Source: a bacterium (GTDB lineage: Bacteria > CAIWAD01). From it: a stretch of DNA of 64,000 nucleotides. The position numbers and the translations under genes are program-made. Of the stretch, positions 6,653 to 49,910 are shown one piece after another (the first letter of the stretch is position 1; every line of letters begins with the position of its first letter). The DNA is taken from contig JAUIFJ010000012.1 in NCBI GenBank assembly GCA_030429345.1, forward strand, positions 19,898 to 83,897. The letters run 5' to 3'. A model generated the notes under the pieces. It saw only the letters and a list, made by a program, of their open reading frames with translations, searched no databases and had not been told where the DNA came from.

Positions 6653-7894
6653 TCAAACGAGCGCCTGCGGAACTTGGTCCTCGAGCAGGGTCCCGCTTTC
6701 GGGAAAGGGCGCCAGGACCCGCTCCAGCAGCCCATGAAGGGCCGCGATTACCGTTCCGAAATTGCCCAGCGGAACCCGGGCCTCTTCGCAGATCGCCTGG
6801 CGCCTGCGCAGCTCCGCCGGATTCAGCGTGCAGGCTCCGCAATGGACGGCCAGGGCCAGGCCGGCTGGATCCGCGGGAAAATCGTGTCCGCGGCAATGCT
6901 CGAAGCGCAGGCGGACACCGTTGCACTCCTCGAGCCAGCGGGGGAGTTTGACCCGCGCGATGTCCTCTTCGGTCGGATGGTGGGCGCAGGCTTCGGCGAT
7001 CAGCACCCGGTCGCCTTCCCGCAGTCTGCGGGCAGCCCGTGCTCCGCGGGCAAAGCCGGCCAGGTCCCCCTGCAGCCGGGCAAAGAGCACCGAGAAGGTG
7101 CTCAGGGGAACACCTGCCGGTGTATCACGGGCGACGGAGGCCAGGGCCTGCGAGTCGCAAAGCACCAGCTGTGGGGGCTCCCGCATGCAGTCAAGGGCCG
7201 CCGGCAGGTCGGCCGTGTCCGTCGACAGGGCCAGGGCGCGGCGATCCAGCAGTTCCCGCAGGACCCGCGCCTGGGGCATGATCAGCCGGCCCGCCGGGGC
7301 CGCCGAATCCTGGGGCATGACCAGCACCACACGATCCCCGGCCTGGACCAGGCCCTCCAGCGGACTGAGTTGACGTGGTGCGCGTGCCAGCAGGAAATCG
7401 GCCACTTCCTGCCGCAGCTTCTCCAGTCCTTCCGGACGGCGTGAACTGACAGCCAGCGGCTGCAGACACTGCGCGGCCAGTTCGCCGACCGCCGATGGGT
7501 CCGGGCCTCCCCGGTCCGCCTGGCTGAAGAGCGGCAGGACGGGCAGGCCGCGTCGGCGGCAGGTGGCCAACAGGTCCTGCTCTGCCCGGCCCCAGACGCC
7601 CGGCGGAATCAGCAGCAGCACGAGGTCCGCACTCTCCAGCGCTTTCCAGGTCCTGCCGGCGCGCTTCCCCCCCAGGGGACTGTTGTCTTCCAGGCCGGCC
7701 GTGTCGATCATCAATACCGGACCGAAGGGGCGCCACTCCATTCCGCGGCGCACGGGATCCGTCGTCGTGCCGGGCGTGTCCGCGACCAGGCTTGTCTCAC
7801 GCCTCGTCAGGGCGTTCATCAGGGCGGACTTGCCGGCGTTGCAGCGGCCCGTCAACACGATGTGGGGCCGCATGCTGTTGGGAGTGTGTTGCAT
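6653..7894 (-). CDS. hydF: [FeFe]-hydrogenase H-cluster maturation GTPase HydF
   Basis: An N-terminal P-loop GTPase block (HIVLTGRCNAGKSALMNAL, DTPGTT, DTAGL) is combined with the C-terminal FeS motif CAHH-x45-HCGAC (CxHx44-53HCxxC). The start was chosen at MQHTPNS. Confidence 0.8.
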   Translation of the reverse strand: MQHTPNSMRPHIVLTGRCNAGKSALMNALTRRETSLVADTPGTTTDPVRRGMEWRPFGPVLMIDTAGLEDNSPLGGKRAGRTWKALESADLVLLLIPPGVWGRAEQDLLATCRRRGLPVLPLFSQADRGGPDPSAVGELAAQCLQPLAVSSRRPEGLEKLRQEVADFLLARAPRQLSPLEGLVQAGDRVVLVMPQDSAAPAGRLIMPQARVLRELLDRRALALSTDTADLPAALDCMREPPQLVLCDSQALASVARDTPAGVPLSTFSVLFARLQGDLAGFARGARAARRLREGDRVLIAEACAHHPTEEDIARVKLPRWLEECNGVRLRFEHCRGHDFPADPAGLALAVHCGACTLNPAELRRRQAICEEARVPLGNFGTVIAALHGLLERVLAPFPESGTLLEDQVPQALV

Positions 7895-7964
7895 GGCTCT
7901 TCCGGCGCGTGAAGCATGGCGGCACTCGCGATGCCGACCACCGTGGTCCACCTGCCCGTTCCCT

Positions 7965-9383
7965 CTAGAAGTACAGATCCCGGACTTCCGTCTCACGCAG
8001 TTCCTCCAGCCGCAGGACCAGCTTGCGCTTGAGCGGGCCTTCTTTCATCTCCTTCAGGGAGCGGGCGATGCAGCTCTCGCCGGCCTTGCGCGTCTGGGGG
8101 CCGGCATAGTCCTGCAGGTACTCGCAGAGCGTCAGCAGCCCGTTCGGGGTGCAGTACTGCTCGATGAAGCCGGGAATCGCGTACTCCATGAACTCCTCGC
8201 CGGTGCGGCCCACGCGGTAGCAGGCCGTGCAGAAGCTGGGAATGTGGTCATGGGCCAGCAGGTCGTGGATCACCTCGTCCAGGCTGCGCATGTCGCCCAG
8301 TTCGAACTGCTCGCGGTCCAGGTGCTGCACCGCCCGTTCGCGCGTGTAGCCGCCCAGCTCGATGCAGCTGCCGGCGTCGATCTGTGAGACACCCAGCTCG
8401 AGCGCCTCGCGGCGCACGCGGGCCGATTCGCGCGCGGTGACGATCAACCCGGTGTAGGGGACGGCGCAGCGCAGGATCGCCGTCAGGCGCAGGAAGTCCT
8501 CGTCGCCGACCCGCCAGGGAAAGGCCTCCTTCAGGCCCGAGGCCGGCTGAAGGCGCGGCACGCTGATCGTGTGCGCTCCCACTCCGTAGCGTTCCAGCAG
8601 GTAGCGGCTGTGGGCAACCAGTCCGAGCACCTCGCCCCTCCAGTCGGAAAGGCCGAAGAGTACGCCGATGCCCACGTCCTCGCAGCCCGCCTCGAAGGCG
8701 CGGCTCAGGCTGTCCAGCCTGTACTGGTAGTCCCCCTTGCGGGTCTGCGCCGGATGCACGCGGGCATAGCTTTGCGGGTCGTAGGTCTCCTGAAAGATCT
8801 GCCAGGTTCCGATGCCCGCCTGAACGACTTCGCGGAAACCGTCGTGATCCATGGGAGCCGCGTTGATGTTCACGCGCCGGATCTCGCCCCGGCCTTCACG
8901 GATCCTGTAGACGGATTCCACGGTTTCGGCGATGTAGCGGGCGTCGTAGTCGGGGTGCTCGCCGAAGACCAGGATCAGCCGCTTGTGCCCCTGTCGCTGC
9001 AGCGCGCGCACCTGGGCTTCCAGTTCCTCCGGTTCCAGGCTTTGGCGCTGAGCCTCGCGATTGCTTCGGCGGAAGCCGCAATAGCTGCAGTCGTTGACGC
9101 ACTCGTTGCCGACATAGAGCGGAGCGAAAAGCACGATCCGGTTTCCGTATACGTCGCGCTTCAGTTGCCGCGCCGTGGCGAGAATCCTGTCGATCTGGCG
9201 CGGCTCGGATGCGCGCAGCAGGCAGGCGGTCTGTTCGAGATCCAGGGGGGTCCTGGCAAGACTTTGCTGCAGGATCTCTTCCAGTCGCGCGTCCTCGACC
9301 GCGCCCTGTTCGGCCAGCAGATCCGGGATCCGCGCCTCGGCAATGAAGTCCCGCGAGTTCCGGGACAAACGACCCTTCTGCAT
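7965..9383 (-). CDS. hydG: [FeFe]-hydrogenase maturase HydG, radical SAM tyrosine lyase
   Basis: A radical-SAM CVNDCSYCGF (CX3CX2C) motif is combined with the C-terminal HydG-specific CTACYR...C (CX2CX22C) auxiliary-cluster motif. The start at MQKGRLS has a GGAGG RBS. Confidence 0.85.
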   Translation of the reverse strand: MQKGRLSRNSRDFIAEARIPDLLAEQGAVEDARLEEILQQSLARTPLDLEQTACLLRASEPRQIDRILATARQLKRDVYGNRIVLFAPLYVGNECVNDCSYCGFRRSNREAQRQSLEPEELEAQVRALQRQGHKRLILVFGEHPDYDARYIAETVESVYRIREGRGEIRRVNINAAPMDHDGFREVVQAGIGTWQIFQETYDPQSYARVHPAQTRKGDYQYRLDSLSRAFEAGCEDVGIGVLFGLSDWRGEVLGLVAHSRYLLERYGVGAHTISVPRLQPASGLKEAFPWRVGDEDFLRLTAILRCAVPYTGLIVTARESARVRREALELGVSQIDAGSCIELGGYTRERAVQHLDREQFELGDMRSLDEVIHDLLAHDHIPSFCTACYRVGRTGEEFMEYAIPGFIEQYCTPNGLLTLCEYLQDYAGPQTRKAGESCIARSLKEMKEGPLKRKLVLRLEELRETEVRDLYF

Positions 9384-9622
9384 AGCGCCTCCTGATTTGT
9401 TAATAATTTCACATGAAGCAAGTCCTTCGCCTTGCGTCAGATCAAGCGGGGACGCTTTTTCAGGAGGCATTTTCGGGCACCGCCAAAGGGTCGCCAGAAA
9501 CCGCGGGACGCGAAAGGAAAAAGGGTTCTCCTTCTTTCATCGCCCCGTCACTTGACGAAAGGCAAGAACACGATCCGCGGGCGCTCTAACTTGGGTGCAC
9601 CTTAGCAAGCATGGGAGGAAGC

Positions 9623-10147
9623 ATGGCCGTCAAGGAACTCCACTTCAATTCGGTGGAAGAGATTTTCAAGTACGCCATCACGGTGGAAAACCGCGGATTC
9701 GAGTTCTATCGCAATGCCGCCGAGCGCACGAGCAATGATACCGCGCGCCAGTTCTTCGAGGAGTTTGCCGAGGAAGAGCGCGAGCACAAGCGCGTGCTGG
9801 CCGAACTCTACAAGACCTGGAAGGCCGAAGGGAAGTGGAAGGATGACGTCCTGCGCGAGGAACACAAGCACGGCATGGACATCCACGACCCGATCATCGG
9901 CCAGGCCATCCGCAAGGGACTGGCCAGCGACAGCTACGACACGACCGCCGTGGACATTGCCATCGTGCTGGAGAAAGAGGCCAGCGCCTTCTACAGCACG
10001 GCTGCCGACCGCGTCGAGGACCCGGAACTGCAGCGCATCCTGCGCTGGCTCGCCGAGTGGGAAGACGACCACCTGCGCTACATGGTGGAACTGAACGAGA
10101 GCCTGCGCGAGACCTATTGGAACGACAACAACTTCTGGCCCTTCTAA
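9623..10147 (+). CDS. rubrerythrin/ferritin-like diiron domain protein
   Basis: Paired EExxH-type motifs (EFAEEEREH, WEDDH) sit in a four-helix-like sequence. A GGAGG RBS precedes the ATG. It is divergent from hydG. Confidence 0.55.
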   Translation: MAVKELHFNSVEEIFKYAITVENRGFEFYRNAAERTSNDTARQFFEEFAEEEREHKRVLAELYKTWKAEGKWKDDVLREEHKHGMDIHDPIIGQAIRKGLASDSYDTTAVDIAIVLEKEASAFYSTAADRVEDPELQRILRWLAEWEDDHLRYMVELNESLRETYWNDNNFWPF

Positions 10148-10290
10148 GGGGCGAATCCGCATCTGTGTTTTCCGCGGCCGGCCTTGCCGGCCGCGTCTGC
10201 TCCATCCACTTCTGATCCCTCAACGGTTGATTGCCATTTCAGACAAGCTTTGATTCCTTTGCCCAGTCGCCCAACAAGCCGGAGACCCAG

Positions 10291-11985
10291 ATGAAACCTT
10301 TGCTGCTCGCGCTGCTACTCGCGCAGGCCGGACACCTCCATGCCGAACACGCCATCGGTTCGACCCCGGCGGATTTCAGTGGAACACCGACCCGTCCCCA
10401 GGAATTCGGAAACAACTGGTCGCTGTCGGACCACCAGGGAAAGGTGGTGCTGGTCAATTTCGGCGCCATCTGGTGACCGGGCTGCAATTCGGAGTTTCCG
10501 CATTTACAGAACGACTTTGAAAGCGCCTACCCGGAAGAATTCTTCGAGCTGGTCCACGTGGATGTGGACAATCGCCCGGCCTCCGGCCTGAACAACCACT
10601 GGGCCCATGACAATCCCACCTTTCCCGTGCTGACCGGCGCCGCGGGCATTTTCGGCGCCTGGGGCACGGGCTACATTCCCCATACGACCATCCTGGACCC
10701 CCAGGGCGTGGTTCGCGGCAACTGGGTCGGCTGGAGCAGTTCCGCCGGCAACGCCATGCACTCGGTGATCCAGGCCTGGCTGCCCGCACCCGCGGAGCCG
10801 GAAGTCGCGGCGCTGCATTTTTCCGGCGACGCCAACAATGATGCCCACCCGGATCCCGGCGAGCTCTTGCAGCTGGAACTCGTGCTGGCCAATCCGGCCG
10901 GCCTGCAAGGCGCCCAGAACCTGAGCTGCAACCTTGAAACCGCCGGCCCCTGGCTGACGGTGACCCAGGCCCAGACCTTCGCGGACCAGCTGCCCGGCGG
11001 CGGCCAGACAGCCTGCGCACCGCTGCTGGTACTGCAGGTCGATCCGGCGTCTCCGCGTCACACGGCCCAGCTGCAGTTCAGCTGGAGCGCGACCGGAGCG
11101 CAGGGCGAAGCCCTTTCCGGAAGCTTCAGCGCGCCGCTGGACGTCGCGCGGCACCCGCTGCTCGTCGTCGATCGTGATCCAGCCTACGACGAGGCCGGTC
11201 CCGTGATCGCCGCCCTGGACCAGCTCGGCCTTGCCTACGACCTGTGGACCGGCGGCTGCGCGGACCAGCCGAGTGATTCGCTCAAGTCCTGGAACACGGT
11301 GCTCTGGCTGGGCGGCCGACAGTTCCCCGCCCTGGACGAGGCCGACCTCTTCCAGGCTCGACTTCATGTCTCACAAGGTCGTCGGTTCTTCCTGTCCGCA
11401 CAGCATCTGCCGTCCGCGGCAGCCGACCTGGCGGAGATCTTCGCCATCCAGGAGGGCGCATTCGCCCCGGGACCGATCCTGAGCGGCGTGCCCGGATCGC
11501 CCTTCGAGAACGGCTTCTGCCAGCTCAACACACCCGGCGGCGCGCAGAACAGCATTCATCCCAACGAGCTGCTCCTGCTGGAAGGGGCCGAATCGCTCTT
11601 CGACTGGGCCCCCGGACCGGGAGCCGCGCTTGCCGGAAGACGAGACGCGACGGGACGGGCGCTCTGCGCGGCTTTTCCCCTGGAGGCTGTCGGCACGCAG
11701 ATCGAAGGCTGGGTCACCATTCCGGAGCTGCTTTCGGAATGCCTTGCCTGGCTGGACCAGCCTCAGGAACTGCCTGCGCCGCATCTTGAGATCCAGCGCC
11801 TTGCGGACGGGAGCCTGCGCCTGCAATGGAACAGCATCCCTGGCGCAGCGGGCTATCATGTCTGGACCGGGACGCATCCTTTCCAGGTCGGCTCCTTGCT
11901 CGACACGACGCCGGATACCACGTATACACTCCCCGCGCCTTCTGCCGGCATGGCGGGCTACCGCGTGGAGGCCAGCATCGACTAG
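10291..11985 (+). CDS. TlpA/ResA-like thiol:disulfide oxidoreductase, predicted selenoprotein (W-U-P-G-C; in-frame TGA at 10474-10476), fused to a large unknown domain and a C-terminal FN3-like module
   Basis: The ORFs 10231..10476 and 10558..11985 are in the same frame with no other stop between them. The TGA falls exactly at the first Cys of the thioredoxin motif (VVLVNFGAIW-[TGA]-PGCNSEFPHL). A signal peptide MKPLLLALLLAQAGHLHA and a GGAGA RBS are present. Confidence 0.7.
10486..10504 (+). promoter_or_regulatory. SECIS-like hairpin downstream of the UGA (AAUUCGG-AGUUU-CCGCAUU, loop at +17..+21)
   Basis: The stem-loop was folded by eye. It has the same geometry and loop sequence as the hairpins after the other two in-frame TGAs. 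Confidence 0.4.
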
Positions 11986-12015
11986 CCTGGGTCGCAATTC
12001 ACTTCTGCACCCTTC

Positions 12016-12050
12016 GAAAACCCTTTGCAGCCGCGAAGGGTTTTCTTTCC
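12016..12050 (+). terminator. rho-independent terminator after the first TlpA-like selenoprotein gene
   Basis: The hairpin GAAAACCCTT-tgcagccgcg-AAGGGTTTT is followed by a CTTTCCTTTCC run. Confidence 0.5.
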
Positions 12051-12191
12051 TTTCCCTTCGCCAACCCCTGGCCGGATTCAGCGGCGCCGCCCTCCCCTGT
12101 GCCTGCTGAACCTATCGTGGGCATCGTCCTGCGTGTCCCGACATTCCATGCACACGACGCAAACCCTTGTACACAGCTCAGAGGTTACTTG

Positions 12192-12905
12192 ATGAAAAGC
12201 CTGATTCCGGCCCTGCTGCTGGTTCCCCTGCTGGCAGCCCGGGCCGAGTACCCCGCGGGATCGACCCCGCCCGATTTCACTGGAACGACAACCCAACCAG
12301 GCCTCTACGGCCCGGAGTGGACCCTCTCCGATCAGGCCGGCAAGATCGTGCTGCTGCATTGGGGCGCCTGGTGGTGACCGCCCTGCAATGCGGAGTTTCC
12401 GCAGCTGCAGAACCAGATCCGCGAGTTCTATCCGGAGGACGTGCTGGCCATCGCTCATGTGGAGATCACGACCCAGAGCGCCTCTTTCCTCAATAACCAC
12501 TGGGGGCAGTACGATCCGACCTTTCCGCTGTTGACCGGCCTGGACAATCTCTGGCCGGCCTGGACCGTCAACGGGCTGCGTCCGCTGGTGACGATCCTGG
12601 ATCCGCAGGGCGTGGTCGTCGGCAACTGGACCTCCTACACGGAGAGCCACATTGACGACTTCCGCACTGCCATCGACTCGCTGCTTCCCCTGGAGGCACC
12701 GGTACTGTCCATCGAGCGCATGGCCAATGGCATGCTGCGGCTGCACTGGACGGAAGTGGAAGGAGCCGGCAGCTATCGTCTGCTGCAGGCAGCCACTCCC
12801 TGGCAGGAAGGCATCGAGCTGATCCAGACTCCCCTGTTCGAACATGTGCTTGCCGCGCCCGCGCCCGGCCGCGGCTGGTTCCAGGTGGAAGCCCTGGCCC
12901 CCTGA
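12192..12905 (+). CDS. TlpA/ResA-like thiol:disulfide oxidoreductase paralog, predicted selenoprotein (W-U-P-P-C; in-frame TGA at 12375-12377) with a C-terminal FN3-like module
   Basis: The ORFs 11826..12377 and 12441..12905 are in the same frame and are joined across HWGAWW-[TGA]-PPCNAEFPQL. The start at MKSLIPALLL has a signal peptide and a GAGG RBS. Sec is at residue 62, as in the upstream paralog. Confidence 0.7.
12383..12410 (+). promoter_or_regulatory. SECIS-like hairpin (CUGCA-A-UGCGG-AGUUU-CCGCA-GC-UGCAG, loop at +17..+21 after UGA)
   Basis: The stem-loop was folded by eye and has about 10 bp of stem. Confidence 0.45.
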
Positions 12906-12928: not shown

Positions 12929-12961
12929 GCCCTGCCCTCCACCTGGAGGGCAGGGCTTTTT
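12929..12961 (+). terminator. rho-independent terminator
   Basis: The hairpin GCCCTGCCCTCC-acct-GGAGGGCAGGGC is followed by TTTTT. Confidence 0.6.
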
Positions 12962-14450: not shown

Positions 14451-14453
14451 CAG

Positions 14454-14525
14454 TGACCCCTAGGGGAATCGAACCCCTGTTGCAAGAATGAAAATCTTGA
14501 GTCCTAACCACTAGACGAAGGGGCC
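14454..14525 (-). tRNA. tRNA-Glu (anticodon TTC)
   Basis: A manual cloverleaf fold on the reverse-complement strand. The acceptor stem is GGCCCCT/AGGGGTC, the anticodon stem is CAAGA/TCTTG with loop TTTTCAT, and the T-arm is GGGGTTCGATTCCCC. Confidence 0.8.
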
Positions 14526-14540
14526 GGGAATACGATCAAG

Positions 14541-14615
14541 GGTGGAAGAAGGGACTTGAACCCTCGACCTCCTGGGCCACAACCAGGCGCTCTAACCAGC
14601 TGAGCTACATCCACC
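14541..14615 (-). tRNA. tRNA-His (anticodon GTG, with an encoded G-1)
   Basis: A manual fold. The anticodon stem is CCTGG/CCAGG with loop TTGTGGC. The D-arm is GCTCAGCTGGTTAGAGC and the T-loop is TTCAAGT. Confidence 0.75.
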
Positions 14616-14629
14616 ATCTGTGAGAACAA

Positions 14630-14703
14630 CGCGCCCGGAAGGACTCGAACCTTCAACCTACGGCTTAGAAGGCCGTTGCTCTATCCGGTTGAGCTACGGG
14701 CGC
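14630..14703 (-). tRNA. tRNA-Arg (anticodon TCT)
   Basis: A manual fold. The acceptor stem GCGCCCG/CGGGCGC pairs perfectly. The anticodon stem is ACGGC/GCCGT with loop CTTCTAA. Confidence 0.8.
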
Positions 14704-14737
14704 CGCACAGGGACTCGGGTAGCTTTCGTGCCCGGAA

Positions 14738-14811
14738 TCGGGGCGATAGGATTTGAACCTACGACCTCCTGCTCCCAAAGCAGGCGCGCTACCGGGCTGC
14801 GCAACGCCCCG
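14738..14811 (-). tRNA. tRNA-Pro (anticodon TGG)
   Basis: A manual fold. The acceptor stem is CGGGGCG/CGCCCCG. The anticodon stem is CCTGC/GCAGG with loop TTTGGGA. The T-arm is GGTTCAAATCC. Confidence 0.8.
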
Positions 14812-18337: not shown

Positions 18338-21043
<2,706 letters not shown>

Positions 21044-21121: not shown

Positions 21122-22291
21122 ATGGCCGTCTTCGCCCTGATCGTGTCCGTATTCCAGCTGGCGCTGGGCAGCTATTTCTGTGCCCGCCTGCTGCCGCCGC
21201 TGCTGCCGGGCAAGCTTCCGCTGATCGCGGTCTGGCTGGTCTTCCAGCTGCTGCTCTTCCTGCCGCCGGCGGATCTGCTGCTGCGCGGCCAGGGCATTCA
21301 CCTGCCGCTGCTGTTCGAACGGGCCGGCTGGGCCGCCCTGGGCCTGGCCACCATGAGCCTGGGCTTCCTGCTGCCCCGGGACGGCCTGCTGCTGGCGGGC
21401 AAACTGGGCGCATGGATCACTCCCGCGGGCAGCAGCCTGCGCCAGCTGCTGGAGCGCGGGATCCAGCTGCTGGGAAGCGCGGGCGGCACGGCGGCCCTGC
21501 TGGGGTTGATCCTGCTCGCCTTTTTCACCGGAGTCCACACGGCCAGCCGCTTCGACCGCGTCAAGGAGGTCCGCGTTCCGGTGAGCGACCTGCACGAGGA
21601 CCTGCGCGGGCTGCGCATCGTGCAGTTCAGCGACCTGCACATCAATCCCTTCATACGACGCAGGCAGGTGCAGCAGGTGGTCGATCGAATCAACCAGCTG
21701 GAGCCGGACATCATACTCTTCACCGGCGACCTGGCCGACGGCACCGTGGCCGAAATGCGCCCGCACGCGGCTCCCCTGGCCGATCTGGATGCCCCGCTGG
21801 GCGTCTGGGCGGTGACGGGCAACCACGAATACTACCATGACCTGCGCGCCTGGGTCGATGAGTTTCCGCGCCTGGGCATGCCCCTGCTCTTCAACGAGCA
21901 TCGCCGCATCGCGGTCGGCGAGGCGGAACTGGTCATCGCCGGGGTGCCGGATGTGCGCAGCCACCGCGGAGCGCACGATCCCGCCGCGGCACTGGCCGGA
22001 AGCGAGGACGCCGACTATCGCATCCTGCTGGCGCACCAGCCGGCCAGTATTCTGCAGCTTCCCCGCGGCGCTTGCGACCTGGTCCTTTCCGGCCATACCC
22101 ACGGCGGCCAGTACTATCCCTTCCGCGGACTGACCGGCCGCTTCAATCCCTACCTGAAGGGCCTGCATCGCCATCAGGACAGCTGGATCCATGTCAGCAC
22201 GGGAACCGGATTCTGGGGACCGCCGCTGCGCCTGGGCGTCCCCCCGGAAATCACCCTGCTGCAGTTCGAGGAAAAGCCCGCCAGCCCCTGA
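21122..22291 (+). CDS. membrane-anchored metallophosphoesterase (calcineurin-like, YkuE-type)
   Basis: N-terminal TM helices are followed by the GDLHIN, GDLAD, GNHEY and GHTHGGQ motifs. Confidence 0.75.
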   Translation: MAVFALIVSVFQLALGSYFCARLLPPLLPGKLPLIAVWLVFQLLLFLPPADLLLRGQGIHLPLLFERAGWAALGLATMSLGFLLPRDGLLLAGKLGAWITPAGSSLRQLLERGIQLLGSAGGTAALLGLILLAFFTGVHTASRFDRVKEVRVPVSDLHEDLRGLRIVQFSDLHINPFIRRRQVQQVVDRINQLEPDIILFTGDLADGTVAEMRPHAAPLADLDAPLGVWAVTGNHEYYHDLRAWVDEFPRLGMPLLFNEHRRIAVGEAELVIAGVPDVRSHRGAHDPAAALAGSEDADYRILLAHQPASILQLPRGACDLVLSGHTHGGQYYPFRGLTGRFNPYLKGLHRHQDSWIHVSTGTGFWGPPLRLGVPPEITLLQFEEKPASP

Positions 22292-22359
22292 TTGCCCGTT
22301 GGGGCCGCCGTGTGAATTGTTATTCTTTCCTGGTTTACCAGAATTTCCAGGGAGGATTC

Positions 22360-25300
22360 ATGCACCCAGCGCGCTTGCTTTTATGGACGGCGGTTCTGGC
22401 CGGGGCGGCCCGGGCCGAACTGCAGATCGACATTGATCCGGACTCCTTCGTCAACTCGGCGCCGGTCACCATCCGGGCCGATATCGGCCTGACGCCCGGC
22501 ACCTGGTACGAGGCCAACGTGACCGGCCCCAGCGGCTTCCCGCCCATGTATCACGCCGTCTGGGCCAACGACGACGACATTGGCAGTCCCACGCCCGTGA
22601 ATGCCTTCGAGATCGACTACGGCTGCGACACGACCACCTTGACTCTCCAGCCCTTCTCGGTCTTCTATCTTCCCGGCCCCGCAGTGCCTCCCGGCGGTCC
22701 CACCGACTTCGGCACCATGGAATGCGTCGAGCAGAACGAGGCTCCCGGAGCCTTCGCCCTGCTGGCGCCCGCCGACGGATCCACCGGGGTCAACGAACCG
22801 GTGAGTCTCAGCTGGGAAGCCAGCGTCGACCCCGACGAGGACCCGGTGAGCTACAACCTCTACCTGGGAACCACCCCGGATGGTCTGTATGACGAGGCTC
22901 TCGAGACGGGCATCACGGCGACCAGCTACGACTGGAGCGGCGGCAGCCCCGGCGTGACCTACTACTGGGGCATCGGCGCGACGGACGGCGAGCTGGAAAC
23001 CCAGGTCGAGGGCTGGTGGGACTTCACCCTCTTCGATCCCGGCAGTCCTCCCGAACTCGCGCCCCTCGAAGACGATTCCGTCAACGAGGACACCGTATAC
23101 GAACTCTACCTCTGGGCCACCGACCCGGACCAGGACGAACTCAGTTTTTCGGTGGTGAGTGACAATCCCCAGGTGGCGGTCAGCTGGGAAGGTCCGGTGG
23201 AAGGGAACGACATCGACCTGAGCCTGACGCCCGCCGAGGACTATTACGGATCGGCCCTGATCACCGTGACCGTGGAAGATCCCCAGGGCAACTCGGACAG
23301 CGGCAGTTTCACCCTGGCCGTGAACAATGTGAATGATCCGCCGGATCCCTTCGACCTGCTGAGTCCGGACGACATGGCCGTGATTGCCGACGAGGATCTG
23401 GAGGTCACCTTCAGCTGGGAGGAAGGCAGCGATCCGGACCCCGACGAAGGTCCGGCACGCACGACCCAGTTCTGGTACTCGCTCTATGTCAGCGATTCCC
23501 AGGAAACCCTGTGGCAGAGTTCCGTCGCCAGCTGGATCGAGGAAACCAGCTACACCTGGACTCCGCAGGAAGCCGACAGCGGCCCCTGGTACTGGGGCGT
23601 GAAGACCTGGGACCCCTCCGAGGCCGGCACGCAGTCCGACGTGCGCAGCTTCACTCTGGATCCCCCGCCCTCTTTCGGTGAACTGCCCAGCCCCCAGAGC
23701 AGCGAGGACCAGTCATCCACCGAGTACATCTGGGCCAGCGATCCCCTGTTTGATGTGTTGACGCTGGACGCGACGACGACGAATCCCAATGTGAGCCTCC
23801 AGGTCGACACTCCTCTCGAGTGGAATGACATGGAGATCACGCTGACTCCGGACGAGGATTTCTACGGCGATGTGGAGATCCAGGTCACGGCGACCGATCC
23901 CGGGGGCAACGAGGCGGTCGACACCTTCACCTGGACGGTGCTCAATGTCAATGATCCGCCGGACCCCTTCGATCTGCTGGCCCCGGCCGACGAGGCCGTG
24001 CTGAGTGACGAGACGGTGATGCTCAGCTGGGAAGAAGGCAATGACCCGGACCCCACCGAGGAGGAACCCAGCGTCTTCTTTACCTATACCGTATACCTCT
24101 CGAACGATCCGGATGATCTGACAGGAAACGACGGCTATCCCTACGAGTCCGCGATCGTTGCCGAAGACATCGGCACGGCCTTCCATGAAGTCACTGTCGA
24201 GGGCGCGGGCCCGTGGTACTGGCGCATTCGGACCACCGACGACCACCAGACCTATACGATGGGCGCGCAGGTCTGGAGCTTCGGCATCGACTTCCCGCCC
24301 GTCATCGAGCCCATCGAGGATGTCGGCTCGCTGGAGGAAGAGGATGTATACGTCTATGTCCAGGCCTCCGACCCGCTTGACGACCTGCTGAGCTACACGG
24401 TGGAAAGCGACACTCCCCAGGTGCTGGTCGAATACCAGGGGCCCGTCGAGGGAGCCGAGCTTGAGATCCACCTGACGCCGGCCGTGGACTGGAGCGGCCA
24501 GGCCGGGATCACGGTCACCGCCGAGGATCCCGCCGGCGGCACGGACGTGGAGACCTTCACGTATACAGTGACCGATGTCAATGATCCGCCCTACGCCTTC
24601 GACCTGATCAGCCCCGCGGACGAAGCGGTCTTCAACCAGGTGCAGGTGCCGCTGAGCTGGGAAGCCGGCGACGATCCCGACGAGGGCAGCAGCTTCACCT
24701 ACACGGTGCACATCAGCCTGGACCCGGAAACGGTGATGGACAGCGTCTACGTGGAAGGCATCGCCTCTCCGGAACAGGTTTTCACGGCGACGGATTTCGG
24801 GCCCTGGTACTGGACCATCGAAACCTTCGACGACCAGGGAGAGAGCACCTTCGCCAACGAGGTGCGCAGCTTCCTGATCGAGCTGCCGCCTTCGCTGAAC
24901 GCGATCAACGACCTGCAGACCGACGAGGACACACCGCTCAACCACTTCGTCACCGCCAACGATCCCGAGGGCGGCGCCCTTCTCTTCGAGGTGGAGAGTG
25001 ACAATCCCAATGTGACGGCCGCTTTCGCCGATTCCCGTGACACGGAGTTGCTGGTGCTGACTCCAGCCGCGGACTGGTCCGGCATCGCGGAGATCACGGT
25101 TACCGTCACCGACGACCAGGAACTTACGGCGAGCGACAGCTTCCAGCTGACCGTCAACCCGGTCAACGACGCCCCGACCCTGGCCGACCAGGACCTGCTG
25201 ACCGACGAGGACACTCCCCTGGCCCTGTCCTACAACGGCGAGGATCCCGAAGACGATCCGCTGAGCTACAACATTGTCACACCGCCGGTCAACGGCACGG

Positions 25301-27363
25301 TCGACAACGACACCTACACGCCTTTCGCCGAGTTCTTCGGCTTCGACTCGCTGCAGGTGGTCGCCAACGACGGAAGCCTGGATTCCAATCCGGCCTGGTT
25401 CCGCATCACGGTCACCAGCATCAACGACGCCCCGCTGCTCAGTCTTCCGGAGAGCTTCGACTTCAACGAGGACGAAAGCCTGCTCGTCGACCTGGAAAGC
25501 TATGTCAGCGACGTGGACGACAACCAGTGGTCCTATGATGTCAGCTGGAGCAACTTCCAGTTCGACGCCGTCCTGGACGGCTCCGAGGTCACCTTCAGCG
25601 CCAACGCGGACTGGAACGGCAGCGTGGAGGTCGTGGTCAGCGTGGACGACGAACTGAACCGCCTGGTGGCGACGGACACGACCATGGTCAATGTGCTGGC
25701 GGTCAACGACCCGCCGGAAAGCGCGGATTCGGAATGGACAACTTCCGAGGACACCACCGCGGAAGTGCCCTTCCAGGCCGCCGACATCGACAGCGGGGAG
25801 CTGAGCATCGTCCTGGGCCAGGGGCCCTTCAACGGCAGCTACGACGAAGGAATGTATACGCCGGCCGCCGAGTTCAGCGGCATGGACTCCCTGTCCTTCA
25901 CCGCTTTCGACGGCGAGTTCTCCTCCGCCGAGTCCTGGGTCCGGATCACGGTGACGGCCGTCAACGACGCCCCGGGCATCGATCTGCCCGAAAGCATGAG
26001 CTTTGCCGAGGACAGCACGGTGGTGATGGACCTCTCTGCCTTCATCAGCGACGTGGACAACAGCGAGCTGGCCCTGAGTGTCACGGGACAAGGCAGCCTG
26101 GATGTGAGCTTCTCCGGCCTGGAAATGACCATCGTCCCCGAAGCCGACTGGTTCGGCGAGGAGGAGCTGACGATCACCGTCGACGACCAGGTGAACCGCC
26201 TGACGGCCAGTGACGTGATGACCGTGATCTACACCGCGGTCAACGACGCGCCGCAGGCCTTCGACGTGATGCAGGACATTCCCGAAGACACGCCGACGGC
26301 ATTGGCCTTCAACGGCCTGGACATCGAGGAGGATCCCCTGCAGTACGAGATCGGCCTGCAGCCCAGCCACGGCACGGTCGTCGACGGCGTCTACACTCCT
26401 GCCGCCGACTATTTCGGTCCGGACACGCTGAGCTACACGGCCAACGACGGCGCCCTCTCCTCCGCCGAGGCATTCGTCTACATCACGGTGCTGGCCGGAA
26501 ACGACTGCCCCTTCCTCGAGCTGCCGCCCGACGACCTGGAGGGCGTCGAGCAGCCCGAGGACTGGACCTATGTGCTGCCCGGCGAAACAATTGCCGGCTG
26601 GTACACGGATCCCGACGGCGATCCCCTGACGGCCGACTCGGTCTTTGTCGAGGTGTCGGCCTTCTTCAGCGGCGTGCTCACGGTGGACTTCATGGTTACG
26701 GATGGAAGCTGCGAGGTCAACGGGTCCGTCGACCTGGTGATCGATGCCCGCAACGACGCTCCGATCGTCGAACTCTGCGGCCCGCTGGATTGCGGCCCGA
26801 TCGAGGACCTGGAGGCCTTCGCCAACGCCTGGAGCGAGGTCGGCCTGAGCCTGCTCGACCATGACGGCGACGAGATGAATGTCAGCTGGTTCGTCGACGG
26901 CGAGCTTGTCTGCAGCCAGCAGCGCGACAGCCTGGAGACCTGCCTGCCGACCTGCCTGGACCTGGCTCCCTGGTGGACGGAGGATCCGCAGAACATCACC
27001 GTGCACTACGAGGTCAGCGACGACAGCGTGACGATCAACGAAGGCGGCGCGGACTGTTCCTGGTACCTGGACTTCCTCGACGTGGTCGAGGTCCTGCCCA
27101 CGGAATTCTACCTGGCGCAGAACTACCCCAATCCCTTCAACCCGAGCACGATGATCCGCTTCGGCCTGCCCCACCTGCAGCACGTGCGGGCCGCTGTCTA
27201 CAACCTGCAGGGCCGCCGCGTGGATGTCCTGTTGGACGAGACCCTGCCCGCCGGACACCACGAGTTCAGCTGGCAGGCCGGCGACCTGGCCTCCGGCGTC
27301 TACATCCTGGTAATGGACACCGGCCGCGAGGTCAAGCGCCAGAAGATGATGCTGCTGCGCTAG
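22360..27363 (+). CDS. giant secreted cadherin-like/Ig-like repeat adhesin with a T9SS C-terminal sorting domain (1667 aa)
   Basis: A GGAGG RBS and the signal peptide MHPARLLLWTAVLAGAARA are present. There are more than 12 repeats ending VNDPPD / VNDAP. The C-terminus reads NYPNPFNPSTMIRFGLP...GVYILVM...KMMLLR (Por_Secre_tail). Confidence 0.8.
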   Translation: MHPARLLLWTAVLAGAARAELQIDIDPDSFVNSAPVTIRADIGLTPGTWYEANVTGPSGFPPMYHAVWANDDDIGSPTPVNAFEIDYGCDTTTLTLQPFSVFYLPGPAVPPGGPTDFGTMECVEQNEAPGAFALLAPADGSTGVNEPVSLSWEASVDPDEDPVSYNLYLGTTPDGLYDEALETGITATSYDWSGGSPGVTYYWGIGATDGELETQVEGWWDFTLFDPGSPPELAPLEDDSVNEDTVYELYLWATDPDQDELSFSVVSDNPQVAVSWEGPVEGNDIDLSLTPAEDYYGSALITVTVEDPQGNSDSGSFTLAVNNVNDPPDPFDLLSPDDMAVIADEDLEVTFSWEEGSDPDPDEGPARTTQFWYSLYVSDSQETLWQSSVASWIEETSYTWTPQEADSGPWYWGVKTWDPSEAGTQSDVRSFTLDPPPSFGELPSPQSSEDQSSTEYIWASDPLFDVLTLDATTTNPNVSLQVDTPLEWNDMEITLTPDEDFYGDVEIQVTATDPGGNEAVDTFTWTVLNVNDPPDPFDLLAPADEAVLSDETVMLSWEEGNDPDPTEEEPSVFFTYTVYLSNDPDDLTGNDGYPYESAIVAEDIGTAFHEVTVEGAGPWYWRIRTTDDHQTYTMGAQVWSFGIDFPPVIEPIEDVGSLEEEDVYVYVQASDPLDDLLSYTVESDTPQVLVEYQGPVEGAELEIHLTPAVDWSGQAGITVTAEDPAGGTDVETFTYTVTDVNDPPYAFDLISPADEAVFNQVQVPLSWEAGDDPDEGSSFTYTVHISLDPETVMDSVYVEGIASPEQVFTATDFGPWYWTIETFDDQGESTFANEVRSFLIELPPSLNAINDLQTDEDTPLNHFVTANDPEGGALLFEVESDNPNVTAAFADSRDTELLVLTPAADWSGIAEITVTVTDDQELTASDSFQLTVNPVNDAPTLADQDLLTDEDTPLALSYNGEDPEDDPLSYNIVTPPVNGTVDNDTYTPFAEFFGFDSLQVVANDGSLDSNPAWFRITVTSINDAPLLSLPESFDFNEDESLLVDLESYVSDVDDNQWSYDVSWSNFQFDAVLDGSEVTFSANADWNGSVEVVVSVDDELNRLVATDTTMVNVLAVNDPPESADSEWTTSEDTTAEVPFQAADIDSGELSIVLGQGPFNGSYDEGMYTPAAEFSGMDSLSFTAFDGEFSSAESWVRITVTAVNDAPGIDLPESMSFAEDSTVVMDLSAFISDVDNSELALSVTGQGSLDVSFSGLEMTIVPEADWFGEEELTITVDDQVNRLTASDVMTVIYTAVNDAPQAFDVMQDIPEDTPTALAFNGLDIEEDPLQYEIGLQPSHGTVVDGVYTPAADYFGPDTLSYTANDGALSSAEAFVYITVLAGNDCPFLELPPDDLEGVEQPEDWTYVLPGETIAGWYTDPDGDPLTADSVFVEVSAFFSGVLTVDFMVTDGSCEVNGSVDLVIDARNDAPIVELCGPLDCGPIEDLEAFANAWSEVGLSLLDHDGDEMNVSWFVDGELVCSQQRDSLETCLPTCLDLAPWWTEDPQNITVHYEVSDDSVTINEGGADCSWYLDFLDVVEVLPTEFYLAQNYPNPFNPSTMIRFGLPHLQHVRAAVYNLQGRRVDVLLDETLPAGHHEFSWQAGDLASGVYILVMDTGREVKRQKMMLLR

Positions 27364-30394: not shown

Positions 30395-31981
30395 TTACTT
30401 GACCAGTGTCAGGGACTGAATGCTGCGCTGGCGATTGCTCTCCAGCAGGGCGATGTAGCGGCCGCTGGCCAGTCCGGAAGCGTTCCAGACCAGGCTGTGG
30501 CTGCCGGCCTGCAGGCCGCCTTCATACAACACGCTGACCAGCTGGCCCTGCAGGTTGTATACGGCCAGGCGTGCATCGCCGGACTGCGCCAGCTCGAACC
30601 TGAGGCTGGTGGTCGGGTTGAAGGGGTTGGGATAGGCCGGGTTGATGTGGACGCCGTCCGGACGGCTCAGCTCCTGGCCGACCGACGTCAGCTGGCCCAG
30701 CTCGATCGCGACATCGCCGGCTCCCGGCGCGTCCACGGTGGCCCAGGCGCCCAGGGTGCTGTTGGCCAGCGTTCCCGTGGCCCAGACCGTGTAGGTGGTA
30801 CCGGCCATCAGCTCGACCGGCTCGAAGGCAAGCACCACGTCCTGGGTGCCCGCCAGGCGGACTTCCAGGTCGTAGGCCATCGGCATCACCGGCGTATACA
30901 TGGCGGATTCGTTGAATTCGATGTCGCCGAAGAGCACGGTGCCGTCGGCCAGAGTGATGTCGACTGCCGGGGCATCGGCACCGGTGTGCACGAAACGGAC
31001 CCAGGCTTCGTCAGGGTCGGTGAGGCGCGTGTCGCTCAGGACCACGGGGCCGAAGCTCTCGTCGGCCAGCAGGCCGGTGGCGGCCACGGTGGTGGCGCTG
31101 CCCGCGGCGAAGTCGAGGGTGGCGTCGATCACGGGATCGGTGGTCGTGCCGGCGACGAAGACCTGCACGTTGCGGCTGCCGGCCATGATGTCCAGGTAGG
31201 GACTGAAAGCGGGATAGCTCACGTCGCTGAGCACTTCCGCGCCGTCCAGCCAGACATCGACGGCGGGAGCGTCCTCGCTCAGGTGCGCCACGCGCAGGCT
31301 GGTGCCCAGCACGCTCAACTCCTGCGCCTCATCCCCCGGGCCCGGGGCGTCTACGGTCGCCCAGGCGCCCAGTGTGCCGTCGGCAAGCGTCCCTTTGGCC
31401 AGAACGGAATAAGTCGTGCCCTGGTCCAGGGAAACCGGCTCGAAGGAAAGTACGACGTCCTCTGTCCCCGCAATGCGGACCTGCAGGCTGTAGCTGCCGG
31501 GGTGCACGGGGGTATAGTCGATAAACTCGTTGAACTCGACATCCTCGAAAAGCACCGTGCCATCCGCAAGGGTGATGTCTACGGCGGGGGCGTCCGCCGC
31601 CGTGTGGACAAAGCGGACCCAGGCCATTGAAGGATCGGTGTCGCGCGTATCACTCAGGACCAGAGGACCGAAGCTGTCGTCGGACAGCAGCCCGGTAGCG
31701 GCCACAGTCGTTGCGCTGCCTTCAGCGAAATCGAGGGTGGCGTCGATCACAGGATCCATCGAAGTACCCGTGGCGAAAACCTGCACCTGGTGCATGCCGG
31801 CATCGATATCCTGATAGCCGCTGAAAGCGCCGTAGGGCACATTGTTCAGGACAACGGAACCATCCAGCCACACATCCACGTTCGGGGCGTCCGGGCTTAC
31901 ATGAGCAACGCGCAGATCCGCACCCTGGGCCGCCAGAGGCAATGCCAGACCTGCTACAAGAAATGCTTTCCAGTTCATCAT
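30395..31981 (-). CDS. tandem DUF4397-domain secreted protein with a T9SS C-terminal domain
   Basis: Two nearly identical halves are present (LRVAHxSxDAPxVDVWLDG...ATLDFAxGSATTVAATGLL). The C-terminus reads AYPNPFNPTTSLRFEL...GRYIALL. Confidence 0.7.
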   Translation of the reverse strand: MMNWKAFLVAGLALPLAAQGADLRVAHVSPDAPNVDVWLDGSVVLNNVPYGAFSGYQDIDAGMHQVQVFATGTSMDPVIDATLDFAEGSATTVAATGLLSDDSFGPLVLSDTRDTDPSMAWVRFVHTAADAPAVDITLADGTVLFEDVEFNEFIDYTPVHPGSYSLQVRIAGTEDVVLSFEPVSLDQGTTYSVLAKGTLADGTLGAWATVDAPGPGDEAQELSVLGTSLRVAHLSEDAPAVDVWLDGAEVLSDVSYPAFSPYLDIMAGSRNVQVFVAGTTTDPVIDATLDFAAGSATTVAATGLLADESFGPVVLSDTRLTDPDEAWVRFVHTGADAPAVDITLADGTVLFGDIEFNESAMYTPVMPMAYDLEVRLAGTQDVVLAFEPVELMAGTTYTVWATGTLANSTLGAWATVDAPGAGDVAIELGQLTSVGQELSRPDGVHINPAYPNPFNPTTSLRFELAQSGDARLAVYNLQGQLVSVLYEGGLQAGSHSLVWNASGLASGRYIALLESNRQRSIQSLTLVK

Positions 31982-36112: not shown

Positions 36113-36787
36113 TTATTCCTCGGCCCCGGCGGCGATCATGCTGCGGGCAGCCTGCAGCAGCAGTTCCGGCTGCAGGCGGACCCGGTAGTCCGGATTGGCG
36201 TAGACGAAATGAAGGACCCCCTCGCGATCCACCAGGAACACGGCCGGTACTGGCAACTGGTGATGATCACGCCCCGAATCGGCCTCCAGGTCGATGTCGA
36301 AGGACTCCTTGTACTTTCGAACCAGGCTCTCCTCCACCTGGAAGGCAATGCCCATGGCGCGCGCCGCACGCATGTCGCTGTCGGAACACAGCAGGTAGCC
36401 CACACCCTCCTCGACTGCTGTATCACGCTGTTTCCCGGGGCGATCCGGGCTGACGGCGATCACCTGGCAACCCAGGGCAAGCAGTTCGTCCTCGATCTCC
36501 TGCAGCTCTCCCAACTGGAGAGTGCAGTAGGGTCACCAGCCGCCGCGGAAGAAGACGAGCACGGTCGGCTTCTTCGCCCACAGGCTGTCCAGGAGTACCT
36601 CCGAGCCATCGGCGAGCCGCAGCTGCAGAGCAGGGATCTGCGTACCGACCAGGCGCGGGCAGATCTGCTCCGCCGAATCGGCGACGGGGTGCTGCCCAGT
36701 ACTCAGTGCCCTTGCCGCGAAGGGCATGAGCAGGAATCCCAGGGCGACAAGAAGTCGAATGGAACCCAGCGACACCTTCATCTTCAT
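36113..36787 (-). CDS. periplasmic peroxiredoxin-like (AhpC/TSA, PRX-like) protein, predicted selenoprotein (W-U-P-Y-C; in-frame TGA at 36533-36535)
   Basis: The ORFs 36533..36823 and 36113..36514 are in the same frame with no other stop. The TGA falls at the peroxidatic Cys position of FFRGGW-[TGA]-PYCTLQLGEL. The signal peptide MKMKVSLGSIRLLVALGFLLMPFAARA has an AAGGAA RBS. Confidence 0.7.
36502..36525 (-). promoter_or_regulatory. SECIS-like hairpin (GCA-CUCUCC-AGUUG-GGAGAG-C-UGC, loop at +17..+21 after UGA)
   Basis: The stem-loop was folded by eye on the mRNA strand. Confidence 0.45.
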
Positions 36788-48700: not shown

Positions 48701-48947
48701 GAGGTTCTCCTGCGCTGTGTCCCTTTTTGCAAAGGTTGCTGTGTTCTTGAGGATGAGGAAGAGCAGACAGAACCGCAAGGACTGATCCGGACAACCGAAA
48801 ACAGCGTCGCGATCGATCGCCGGCTCACCCGGCTACGCCTTCACTGGATTTCCGGTATTGGTCGAAGGCGATGCGTGGTCGATTTTCCCTGTAGGCGAAT
48901 TGACATGCCTCATGGCGAATCCGGATCCCTTTCGTCTGCTTGACCGG

Positions 48948-49910
48948 ATGAAACTCTTTCCCTTGATGCTCTTGAGCCTCTGCTTCCTCCACCTGGCGGG
49001 CTGCGAGGACGATTCTCCTGCACCTCCAGACCTCGGCGAATGGGTCTTCGTTCCCGCCGGAAGCTTCCGCATGGGGGAAACGGGAACTGCCCGCGCCGAG
49101 CCGGAGCATGAGGTCACCCTGACCCGGCACTACTATCTGAGTCGCTACGAGACCACCAACCTGCAATTCGCCTCCATGCTTCAGTGGGCCTGGGAGAACG
49201 GACGCGTGCTCGCCGACAGCTCGGAAGTGCGCTATCCCTACGGGCAGCATCTGATCCAGCTGATGGACCTCTCGAATCCGGCCTGCGAGATCGCTTTCGA
49301 CAGTACGGGTTTCCGGGTACGGGCGTCACGGGATCCAAGGGCACTGGCTGCCTATCCCCAGGGCTACGAGGCGGAGCTGCATCCGGTCAAGCTGCTCTCC
49401 TGGCGGGCCGCGGCGCTCTACTGCGACTGGCGCAGCATCCGCAACGGCCTGGCCCCGTACTACAATGATGAATGGGAACAGGGCGCTGGCCATGATCCCT
49501 ACCTGGCGGAGGGCTTCCGCCTGCCGACGGAAGCCGAATGGGAACACGCCGCGCGCTACCCGGACTCCCGGGTCTTTCCCTGGGGCAACCAGCCCCTGAC
49601 GCCGCAGCGCGCGGCGTTCCGGCAGTCCTGGTCCAGTCCCGTCGGTTCGAGGCCTTCCGGGGAAAGCGCGCTGGGCCTGGCCGACATGGCGGGCAATGTC
49701 TGGGAATGGACCGACGACGGCTACGGCGAGTATCCCTCTGCCGCAGAGCGCCAGAACCCCCTGGGCCGCTCCGGCGGCTGGCCGCACACCATACGGGGCG
49801 GCTACTGGGACAACGGCGAATCCCTGTTGCGCACGACGGCGCGCACGAGCTTCGGAGTCGACTACCCGCATGCGGGCATCGGCTTCCGCGTCTGCCGGCT
49901 GCTTCCCTGA
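48948..49910 (+). CDS. FGE-sulfatase-fold lipoprotein (single domain)
   Basis: A lipoprotein signal MKLFPLMLLSLCFLHLAGC is present, together with the FGE blocks FRLPTEAEWEHAAR and GNVWEWT. The start is uncertain. An alternative TTG/ATG lies upstream. Confidence 0.65.
   Translation: MKLFPLMLLSLCFLHLAGCEDDSPAPPDLGEWVFVPAGSFRMGETGTARAEPEHEVTLTRHYYLSRYETTNLQFASMLQWAWENGRVLADSSEVRYPYGQHLIQLMDLSNPACEIAFDSTGFRVRASRDPRALAAYPQGYEAELHPVKLLSWRAAALYCDWRSIRNGLAPYYNDEWEQGAGHDPYLAEGFRLPTEAEWEHAARYPDSRVFPWGNQPLTPQRAAFRQSWSSPVGSRPSGESALGLADMAGNVWEWTDDGYGEYPSAAERQNPLGRSGGWPHTIRGGYWDNGESLLRTTARTSFGVDYPHAGIGFRVCRLLP

Follow-up and report, generated by a model that had tools for sequence, protein, structure and literature searches.

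What does a TGA codon mean when it interrupts the gene of a redox enzyme right at its active site? This question is raised by two adjacent genes in a stretch of 64,000 nucleotides (positions 19,898 to 83,897 of the 132.5-kb contig JAUIFJ010000012.1, assembly GCA_030429345.1; the whole stretch is called the window below) from a bacterium of the GTDB lineage CAIWAD01. In the read-through translation, gene 1 occupies positions 10291-11985 of the forward strand (564 codons, TAG stop at 11983-11985) and gene 2 positions 12192-12905 of the same strand (237 codons, TGA stop at 12903-12905). Judging from the sequence comparisons described here, both are very probably true selenoprotein genes. Their products belong to the TlpA/ResA-like thiol:disulfide oxidoreductases, are exported and would have an active site of the form U-x-x-C, where U denotes selenocysteine (Sec).

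Two redox genes with a UGA at the active site

A first-pass annotation of the window, made from the sequence alone, had pointed to an in-frame TGA within each gene, at 10474-10476 in gene 1 and at 12375-12377 in gene 2 (both on the forward strand). It gave the flanking peptides as ...VLVNFGAIW-U-PGCNSEFP... and ...LLHWGAWW-U-PPCNAEFP..., and described frames that remain open up to 11985 and 12905, respectively. All of this can be seen directly in the sequence. If the ATG codons at 10291 and 12192 are taken as the starts, the TGA comes at codon 62 of either gene, again as claimed; read as Sec62, it would give the motifs U-P-G-C in gene 1 and U-P-P-C in gene 2. The mechanical list of open reading frames (ORFs) cuts gene 1 into 10231-10476 and 10558-11985, and gene 2 into 11826-12377 and 12441-12905. 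The public gene calls agree with this division: P0001 (475 amino acids) and P0004 (154 amino acids), neither of which has a family assignment, are the downstream pieces, and two N-terminal fragments of 61 amino acids are found on L003, a Logan contig of the same organism.

Each gene is a transcription unit of its own. A purine-rich Shine-Dalgarno-like motif precedes both genes (GGAGA before the ATG of gene 1), and each is followed by an intrinsic-terminator-like hairpin on the forward strand, at 12016-12045 for gene 1 (a stem of 13 pairs, then a T run) and at 12929-12956 for gene 2 (a stem of 12 pairs, 10 of them G-C, then TTTTT). By inspection, both proteins start with type I signal peptides, MKPLLLALLLAQAGHLHA|E and MKSLIPALLLVPLLAARA|E. 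In gene 1 the signal peptide (residues ~1-18) is followed by the TlpA/ResA-like redox domain (~20-165), a beta-rich module (168-290), an alpha/beta module (291-486) and a fibronectin type III (FN3)-like module (487-564). Gene 2 is a short form, which consists of the signal peptide (ARA|E), the redox domain and the FN3-like C-terminal module (~160-237) and is missing the two middle modules of gene 1. The genes had been described as a pair of paralogues, with about 330 additional amino acids in gene 1 only. Both statements were borne out: identity is 48% between the redox domains and 39% between the C-terminal modules, and the additional region resolves into the two modules at 168-290 and 291-486.

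For the Pfam search of both proteins, Sec was written as Cys. Gene 1 matches AhpC-TSA with 42.5 bits (cut-off 26) and Redoxin with 37.9 bits (cut-off 26.6) over residues 28-142, and gene 2 matches the same two families with 38.1 and 36.5 bits, above the gathering score; in both cases the match spans the TGA. The closest solved structure, as found with a profile of six clade members, is B. subtilis ResA (PDB 1st9, E 5e-19). Its WCEPCKKEFP segment is aligned to W-[U/C]-P-x-C-N-x-E-F-P of the clade, which puts the TGA on the first Cys of WCxxC. Invariant residues flank the TGA on both sides in the six clade members; P130 is invariant as well and is aligned with the Pro of ResA 'LPTT', which we take to be the conserved cis-Pro. 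With thioredoxin-like models and ResA both matching across the TGA, the TlpA/ResA-like fold proposed in the first-pass annotation is supported. The best NCBIfam models are ResA, TlpA and DsbE, all of them far under their equivalog cut-offs (for gene 1, 49.4 versus 170 bits for ResA NF002854, 36.9 versus 230 for TlpA NF047696 and 29.4 versus 123 for DsbE/CcmG TIGR00385). Because of these low scores we regard the two proteins as members of the TlpA-like/redoxin superfamily, and not as orthologues of ResA, TlpA or CcmG.

We asked which residue the homologues of the two genes have at the UGA column. Genome and metagenome contigs were scanned, and the codon at the column was then taken for each locus. 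The column is Sec (TGA) in 20 genes on 15 contigs, that is, in the two window genes and in 18 genes from other assemblies (two each in L004, L087, L089 and L090, one each in L001, L005, L006, L084, L085, L086, L088, L091, L093 and L097). It is Cys in four genes (two in L002, and L096 and L091b) and Ser, in the motif SQPC, in another four (the upstream gene of L001, L092, L094 and L095). Thus, genes of the clade have Cys, Ser or, in the majority of cases, Sec at this position, and the conservation runs on past the TGA. With Pfam matches across the TGA in both window genes and 18 more homologues that share the codon, the pattern goes beyond what chance would give. For example, the Cys orthologue P0002 (L002) is 35% identical to gene 1 over 90% of its length, has WCGPC at the column and is followed downstream by a second Cys paralogue. 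This orthologue, together with a hairpin resembling a selenocysteine insertion sequence (SECIS) that is present in the Sec forms and in none of the Cys forms, upholds the earlier claim that Sec stands in for the first Cys. The TGA-bearing genes of the clade share 31-53% amino-acid identity with gene 1; frame and fold persist past the TGA, with 175-534 open codons after it in complete homologues. The alignment of gene 1 takes in residues 22-560 for the Sec homologues L004a, L087a and L090a, residues 1-532 for L089a and residues 1-506 for the Cys form L002a; from these near end-to-end alignments we conclude that the architecture is conserved. A motif scan of the other fetched loci gave 83 more distant TlpA-like matches, and each of the 83 has CxxC.

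The Ser paralogues deserve a separate remark. They share the motif NFGQT[GA]SQPC (L001 6-1576, L092, L094, L095), and in L001 the Ser form lies directly 5' of the Sec form. The normal first nucleophilic attack is impossible at an SxxC site. The upstream paralogue of L001 is apparently frameshifted close to its 3' end (~1200-1870), and an assembly indel is the likely reason. There, a peptide resembling the tail of type IX secretion system (T9SS) proteins, ...LYLLRLETATQVRSQKLLLVR*, is found in the other frame (1214-1576), and the called ORF extends to 1868, overlapping the start of the next gene.

The hairpin behind the UGA and the decoding of the codon

The published model of the bacterial SECIS (bSECIS; PMC13188914, Fig. 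2) has an apical loop of 3-9 nucleotides, an upper stem of 4-16 base pairs, a gap of 16-37 nucleotides between UGA and loop, a G at loop position 1 or 2, mostly with a G or U after it, and a minimum free energy of at most -7.5 kcal/mol. When the U of UGA is counted as 1, the hairpins of the clade start 16 nucleotides past the UGA and have the apical loop A20-G21-U22-U23. An apical-loop hairpin with G21 and U22 unpaired and a spacing of 16-17 nucleotides was found in all 19 folded Sec sequences, and in 17 of the 19 the minimum free energy is -7.5 kcal/mol or lower. In loop, stem, position of the G and spacing, these sequences stay within the limits of the model. In gene 2 the stem-loop (12383-12410, forward strand, apical GUU at 12395-12397) reads CUGCA.UGCGGA-GUU-UCCGCA..UGCAG, with -16.5 kcal/mol for the first 54 nucleotides and -13.0 kcal/mol for the 27-nucleotide core. 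With its GUU/AGUUU loop and its spacing of 16-17 nucleotides it lies within the limits of the bSECIS model, and only 1.3% of the synonymous recodings with the same loop fold as well. The stem-loop of gene 1 (10478-10513, forward strand; core hairpin 10490-10500, apical G21 U22 U23 at 10494-10496) has the same loop and spacing around a core of four base pairs, CGGA-GUU-UCCG. When the fold is constrained to the conserved hairpin it reaches -10.0 kcal/mol, for which the outer helices are needed, and the SECIS of gene 1 thus passes the limits of the model marginally.

Two registers of the hairpin can be told apart among the Sec forms. Class A has the form xCGGA-GUU-UCCGx, with a His or Gln codon after the Pro, and class B the form UGUAACACCG-AGUUUC-CGGUGUUGCA, with a Val codon after the Pro. 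In class B every inner position of the CACCG/CGGUG pairing is paired in 10 of 10 sequences. In class A, L005, L006 and L088 show a double compensatory change from GCGGA/UCCGC to GAGGA/UCCUC, and a compensatory change from C-G to A-U was counted at columns 20/30. The Phe in the loop is encoded by TTT in all 18 of 18 Sec genes, although no more than 4-42% of the Phe codons in the same genes are TTT, and these 18 Sec forms all read GAG UUU CC[G/U]. In the Cys forms the codons for this E-F-P are GAG-TTC-CCC, and there is no hairpin.

Could UGA simply be a reassigned codon in this organism? TGA is the last codon of at least 13 window genes with Pfam support. The first-pass annotation had named acnA (18338-21043, TGA at 21041-21043) as an example, and at least 12 others can be added; in ArgJ, for instance, the Pfam match covers profile positions 6-377 of 377 and reaches the last residue of the protein, right before the TGA. 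Since TGA is the normal stop of these genes, we conclude, in agreement with the earlier claim, that the codon is not reassigned.

A third gene of the window, on the reverse strand at 36787-36113, is a further candidate selenoprotein gene and as such gives independent evidence that the genome decodes UGA as Sec. It would encode an exported AhpC-TSA/Prx-like protein, with the signal peptide MKMKVSLGSIRLLVALGFLLMPFAARALS and with the UGA (36535-36533) as codon 85 in the motif FFRGGW-U-PYC. The hairpin after this UGA (36527-36500), CUGCACUCUCC-AGUUG-GGAGAG.CUGCAG, has -18.5 kcal/mol, and A20-G21-U22-U23 are found at the same +20 to +23 positions as in the pair, although the encoded peptide (T-L-Q-L-G-E) is unrelated. 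In the ORF list this gene is represented by its downstream part of 133 amino acids alone, and it is mis-called in the public gene calls in the same way. At the other candidate TGAs of the window (6644, 7442, 21041, 28059, 28944, 32756, 33436, 34132, 43138, 61057 and 61796) the flanking peptides have no sign of a redox active site.

Several results speak against two selenoprotein genes. We did not find selA, selB, selD or tRNA-Sec within the 64-kb window, nor a reductant partner or a membrane shuttle of the CcdA/DsbD type; tRNA-Sec was not found in 20 related loci either. Three genes with a UGA and a SECIS-like hairpin in a single window favour such machinery indirectly. The window has a cluster of four tRNA genes on the reverse strand (14453-14811), and these are Glu-TTC, His-GTG, Arg-TCT and Pro-TGG. 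For gene 1, the 27-nucleotide hairpin alone has just -3.1 kcal/mol, and the unconstrained fold, with -11.6 kcal/mol, uses another pairing. No Rfam SECIS family matched, either in the whole window at the gathering score or in 10400-12500 at E up to 10. RNAalifold gave no consensus SECIS for the joint alignment of 18 sequences and returned an irrelevant weak structure, and the counts of pairs and of covariation are marginal and not clearly above those of the controls, both for the 18 sequences and for each register; we attribute this to the hairpin being in two registers. Finally, tests of the folding energy against synonymous recodings gave p values of 0.001-0.67 and were significant for some of the sequences only, with p 0.15-0.37 for gene 1.

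How else, then, could the TGAs be explained? They might be true stops, the genes then being pseudogenes or split, or they might stand in place of TGC or TGT through an error in sequencing or assembly; the public gene callers do report stops and separate ORFs, and no Sec machinery was seen in the window. We find this scarcely credible, given that 20 genes, spread over 15 contigs of independent assemblies, have the TGA at the same codon, with conservation on both sides of it, and that frames continue for 175-534 codons in the complete homologues. Moreover, the part 3' of the TGA contains the active-site Cys, the presumed cis-Pro and roughly two thirds of the fold, the downstream ORFs have no signal peptide of their own, and two identical errors in the window plus a third one at 36535 in an unrelated gene are implausible. 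The UGA could also be decoded as one of the standard amino acids Trp, Cys and Gly, through near-cognate suppression or a code change in this lineage. UGA-C is a leaky stop context, and it is present at 16 of the 19 folded Sec sites; the missing tRNA-Sec in the window would fit this explanation as well. However, a code change is excluded by the Pfam-supported genes, at least 13, that stop at TGA at their expected ends. Furthermore, the affected column is that of a catalytic Cys, the alternation of Cys and Sec in orthologues is the classic signature of a selenoprotein, and only the TGA forms have retained a SelB-type hairpin whose G-U loop stands at the canonical distance, which makes decoding as a standard amino acid very unlikely.

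Potentially, there could also be a problem with the hairpin itself: it may be a by-product of the conserved N-x-E-F-P peptide and not a functional SECIS, in which case another element would do the work or Sec would not be inserted. E-F-P is conserved in the Cys forms and in ResA too, the fraction of synonymous recodings that fold as well as or better than the real sequence is 0.02-0.67 in class B, and the covariation across the alignment is weak. Nevertheless, we think that this is unlikely. The same E-F-P forms no hairpin when it is written as GAG UUC CCC in the Cys forms, and the 18 Sec forms keep GAG UUU CC[G/U] even though UUU is otherwise strongly avoided. In addition, CCU is seen solely in sequences with the compensating GAGGA stem, and the third gene has the same A-G-U-U loop at +20 to +23 over a different peptide.

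We therefore return to Sec insertion in both genes. Because the hairpin fits the bacterial SECIS model, we infer that insertion at codon 62 is SelB-dependent: the A20-G21-U22-U23 hairpin downstream of the UGA would recruit the complex of SelB, GTP and Sec-tRNA(Sec), and Sec would be inserted with no termination. The type I signal peptide should then take the protein across the inner membrane. By analogy with ResA and TlpA, Sec62 would be the attacking nucleophile that forms a selenenylsulfide with the disulfide of the substrate, Cys65 would resolve it, and a membrane shuttle of the CcdA/DsbD type would re-reduce the enzyme.

Accessory modules, secretion and genomic surroundings

What are the other modules of these proteins? 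The beta-rich module of gene 1 has the motif D-x-N-x-D-G-R-P-D-P-G-E and gave no significant database match; throughout the clade it accompanies the alpha/beta module (window 11161-11748). For the latter, the window copy has no Pfam match, and 9 of 11 homologous modules match DUF4159 weakly (best E 1.9e-4). The only PDB match of the alpha/beta module is a weak one to the N-terminal domain of IFT52 (E 0.06), so that a relation to DUF4159 or to GldG-IFT52-type (GIFT-like) modules is possible. An exhaustive profile search with an E limit of 1e-3 gave 1513 representative clusters, and in view of the weak DUF4159 match we consider this module to be widespread but poorly described by existing models. 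The sampled proteins that contain it (P0024-P0172) are secreted, multi-domain peptidases of families C1, M1, S8, M6 and M28 and one BNR protein, up to 5960 amino acids long. Most of them have T9SS sorting domains, and the module is sometimes repeated. Since the sampled members are secreted and mostly have such sorting domains, the alpha/beta module is better seen as a common accessory of T9SS cargo than as something specific to redox enzymes. Note that, when the middle and C-terminal part of gene 1 served as query of a word-index protein search, the protein itself was the only match, and that the AlphaFold2 model of the downstream part, based on an alignment of three sequences, had a pLDDT (predicted local distance difference test) of 41.5 and was not used for a fold search.

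The C-terminal module had been called FN3-like in both genes. Weak evidence favours this, as FN3 domains are the top four PDB matches of a profile of seven modules (E 0.008-0.045), but Pfam gave no match at E up to 10. In neither window gene was there a match to Por_Secre_tail. This domain was found weakly in L001, L004b, L005, L091 and L002b (E 3e-5 to 1e-3, under the cut-off of 27 bits where scored). In the adjacent pairs of other organisms, one gene typically has the FN3-like C-terminus and its partner a T9SS sorting domain (L004, L002); L087, L089 and L090 probably have the same paired arrangement, with second genes cut by the contig end.

Three other proteins of the window have a Por_Secre_tail domain, at 22072-27363 (forward strand), 30395-31981 and 54960-55778 (both reverse strand); one of the three is a protein of 1763 amino acids with Big_9/cadherin-like repeats. 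On this ground, the organism probably has a T9SS. A rubrerythrin-like gene (9611-10147, forward strand) lies immediately 5' of gene 1, divergent from the genes for HydF (6653-7996) and for a HydE/G-like radical SAM/BATS protein (7965-9470), both on the reverse strand. Together with the T9SS domains, these three genes suggest an anaerobe with a T9SS, and their arrangement possibly indicates a context of oxidative stress. We were not able to find a conserved neighbourhood: tblastn with ten window genes, namely nine that surround the pair and the downstream ORF of the third candidate (36113-36514), gave no match in 19 related loci, and a Pfam search of the ORFs flanking the homologues in L004, L005, L089, L090 and L091 did not bring up CcdA, DsbD or any other partner that recurs. 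A C10 peptidase adjoins the homologue in L005. Elsewhere in the window, two adjacent and divergent genes encode proteins with FGE-sulfatase (SUMF1-like) domains (46349-48778, reverse strand, and 48858-49910, forward strand).

The family is probably active in the periplasm or at the surface of the cell, as suggested by the occurrence of its modules in T9SS cargo and by several close homologues that end in a T9SS sorting domain; unlike these homologues, the window genes end in the FN3-like module. It is tempting to speculate that the enzymes keep secreted cysteine peptidases reduced, an idea that we base on the shared accessory modules and the C10 peptidase beside the L005 homologue, and on nothing else.

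Reading through the UGA in the annotation restores three exported redox enzymes, namely those of gene 1, gene 2 and 36787-36113, and marks an uncultured, probably anaerobic bacterium with a T9SS as a user of selenium. What is known about the decoding of Sec and about TlpA-like enzymes is left unchanged. Unusual for the clade are Sec rather than Cys as the common state and the joining of the redox domain to a module of secreted peptidases, and both point to a little-studied thiol chemistry that depends on selenium and is located in the periplasm or at the cell surface. One may go further and ask, tentatively, whether we are dealing with an undescribed clade of TlpA-like proteins dominated by Sec, whose members are exported past the inner membrane and, in many instances, presented at the cell surface by the T9SS. 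We see this as possible but rather doubtful. If true, there would be extracellular selenoenzymes that lack an obvious electron donor and whose task in anaerobes might be to keep surface proteins or secreted cysteine peptidases in the reduced state, and the tandem Sec, Cys and Ser paralogues would mean a division of labour.

Comparison with known systems

A selenoprotein described as 'thiol-disulfide isomerase-like protein' (TlpA-like, cd02966, UxxC) was first reported in the Sargasso Sea selenoproteome in 2005 (PMC1088965). Table 1 of a 2026 review includes the TlpA-like UxxC family, beside a 'UGC-containing TlpA' and a Prx-like UxxC family (PMC13188914). MGB1650493.1 and WP_011366075.1 are among the catalogued examples that the review cites. 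The kind of enzyme found here is therefore already known. Likened to the thiol-disulfide isomerase-like family by description only, the window clade has the same TlpA-like fold, with Sec at the N-terminal Cys of CxxC and widespread Cys homologues, and the same position of the bacterial SECIS within the coding region, right after the UGA. What it adds are the signal peptide, the accessory modules, a C-terminal domain that is either FN3-like or of the T9SS type, the conserved tandem pairs and Sec as the majority state (20 Sec, 4 Cys, 4 Ser).

ResA (PDB 1st9) and the Bradyrhizobium TlpA (PDB 1jfu, E 3e-9) can be aligned with the window proteins in the W-C-x-P-C-x-x-E-F-P region and are extracytoplasmic, as the window proteins would be. 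In contrast to them, the window proteins would have a Sec nucleophile and are multi-domain, and the window offers no context of cytochrome c maturation. Another ResA/TlpA-like selenoprotein family, WAxxUGC (NF041054), was considered and rejected: the score was 18.5 bits versus a cut-off of 300, and its motif is UGC, compared with W-U-P-x-C here. The third gene resembles the Prx-like UxxC selenoproteins (PF00578), with the same AhpC-TSA fold, the motif GGW-U-PYC and a SECIS hairpin directly after the UGA; its best NCBIfam match is SelL_rel_redox, with 50 bits under a cut-off of 120.

A full-text search of incomplete coverage gave no relevant paper that links selenoproteins with type IX secretion, the sole co-mention being an unrelated study of animal nutrition. 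Compared with the systems listed above, the features that may be new are the particular clade, the prevalence of Sec in it, the tandem Sec, Cys and Ser paralogues, and the fusion of the redox domain to modules of T9SS cargo.

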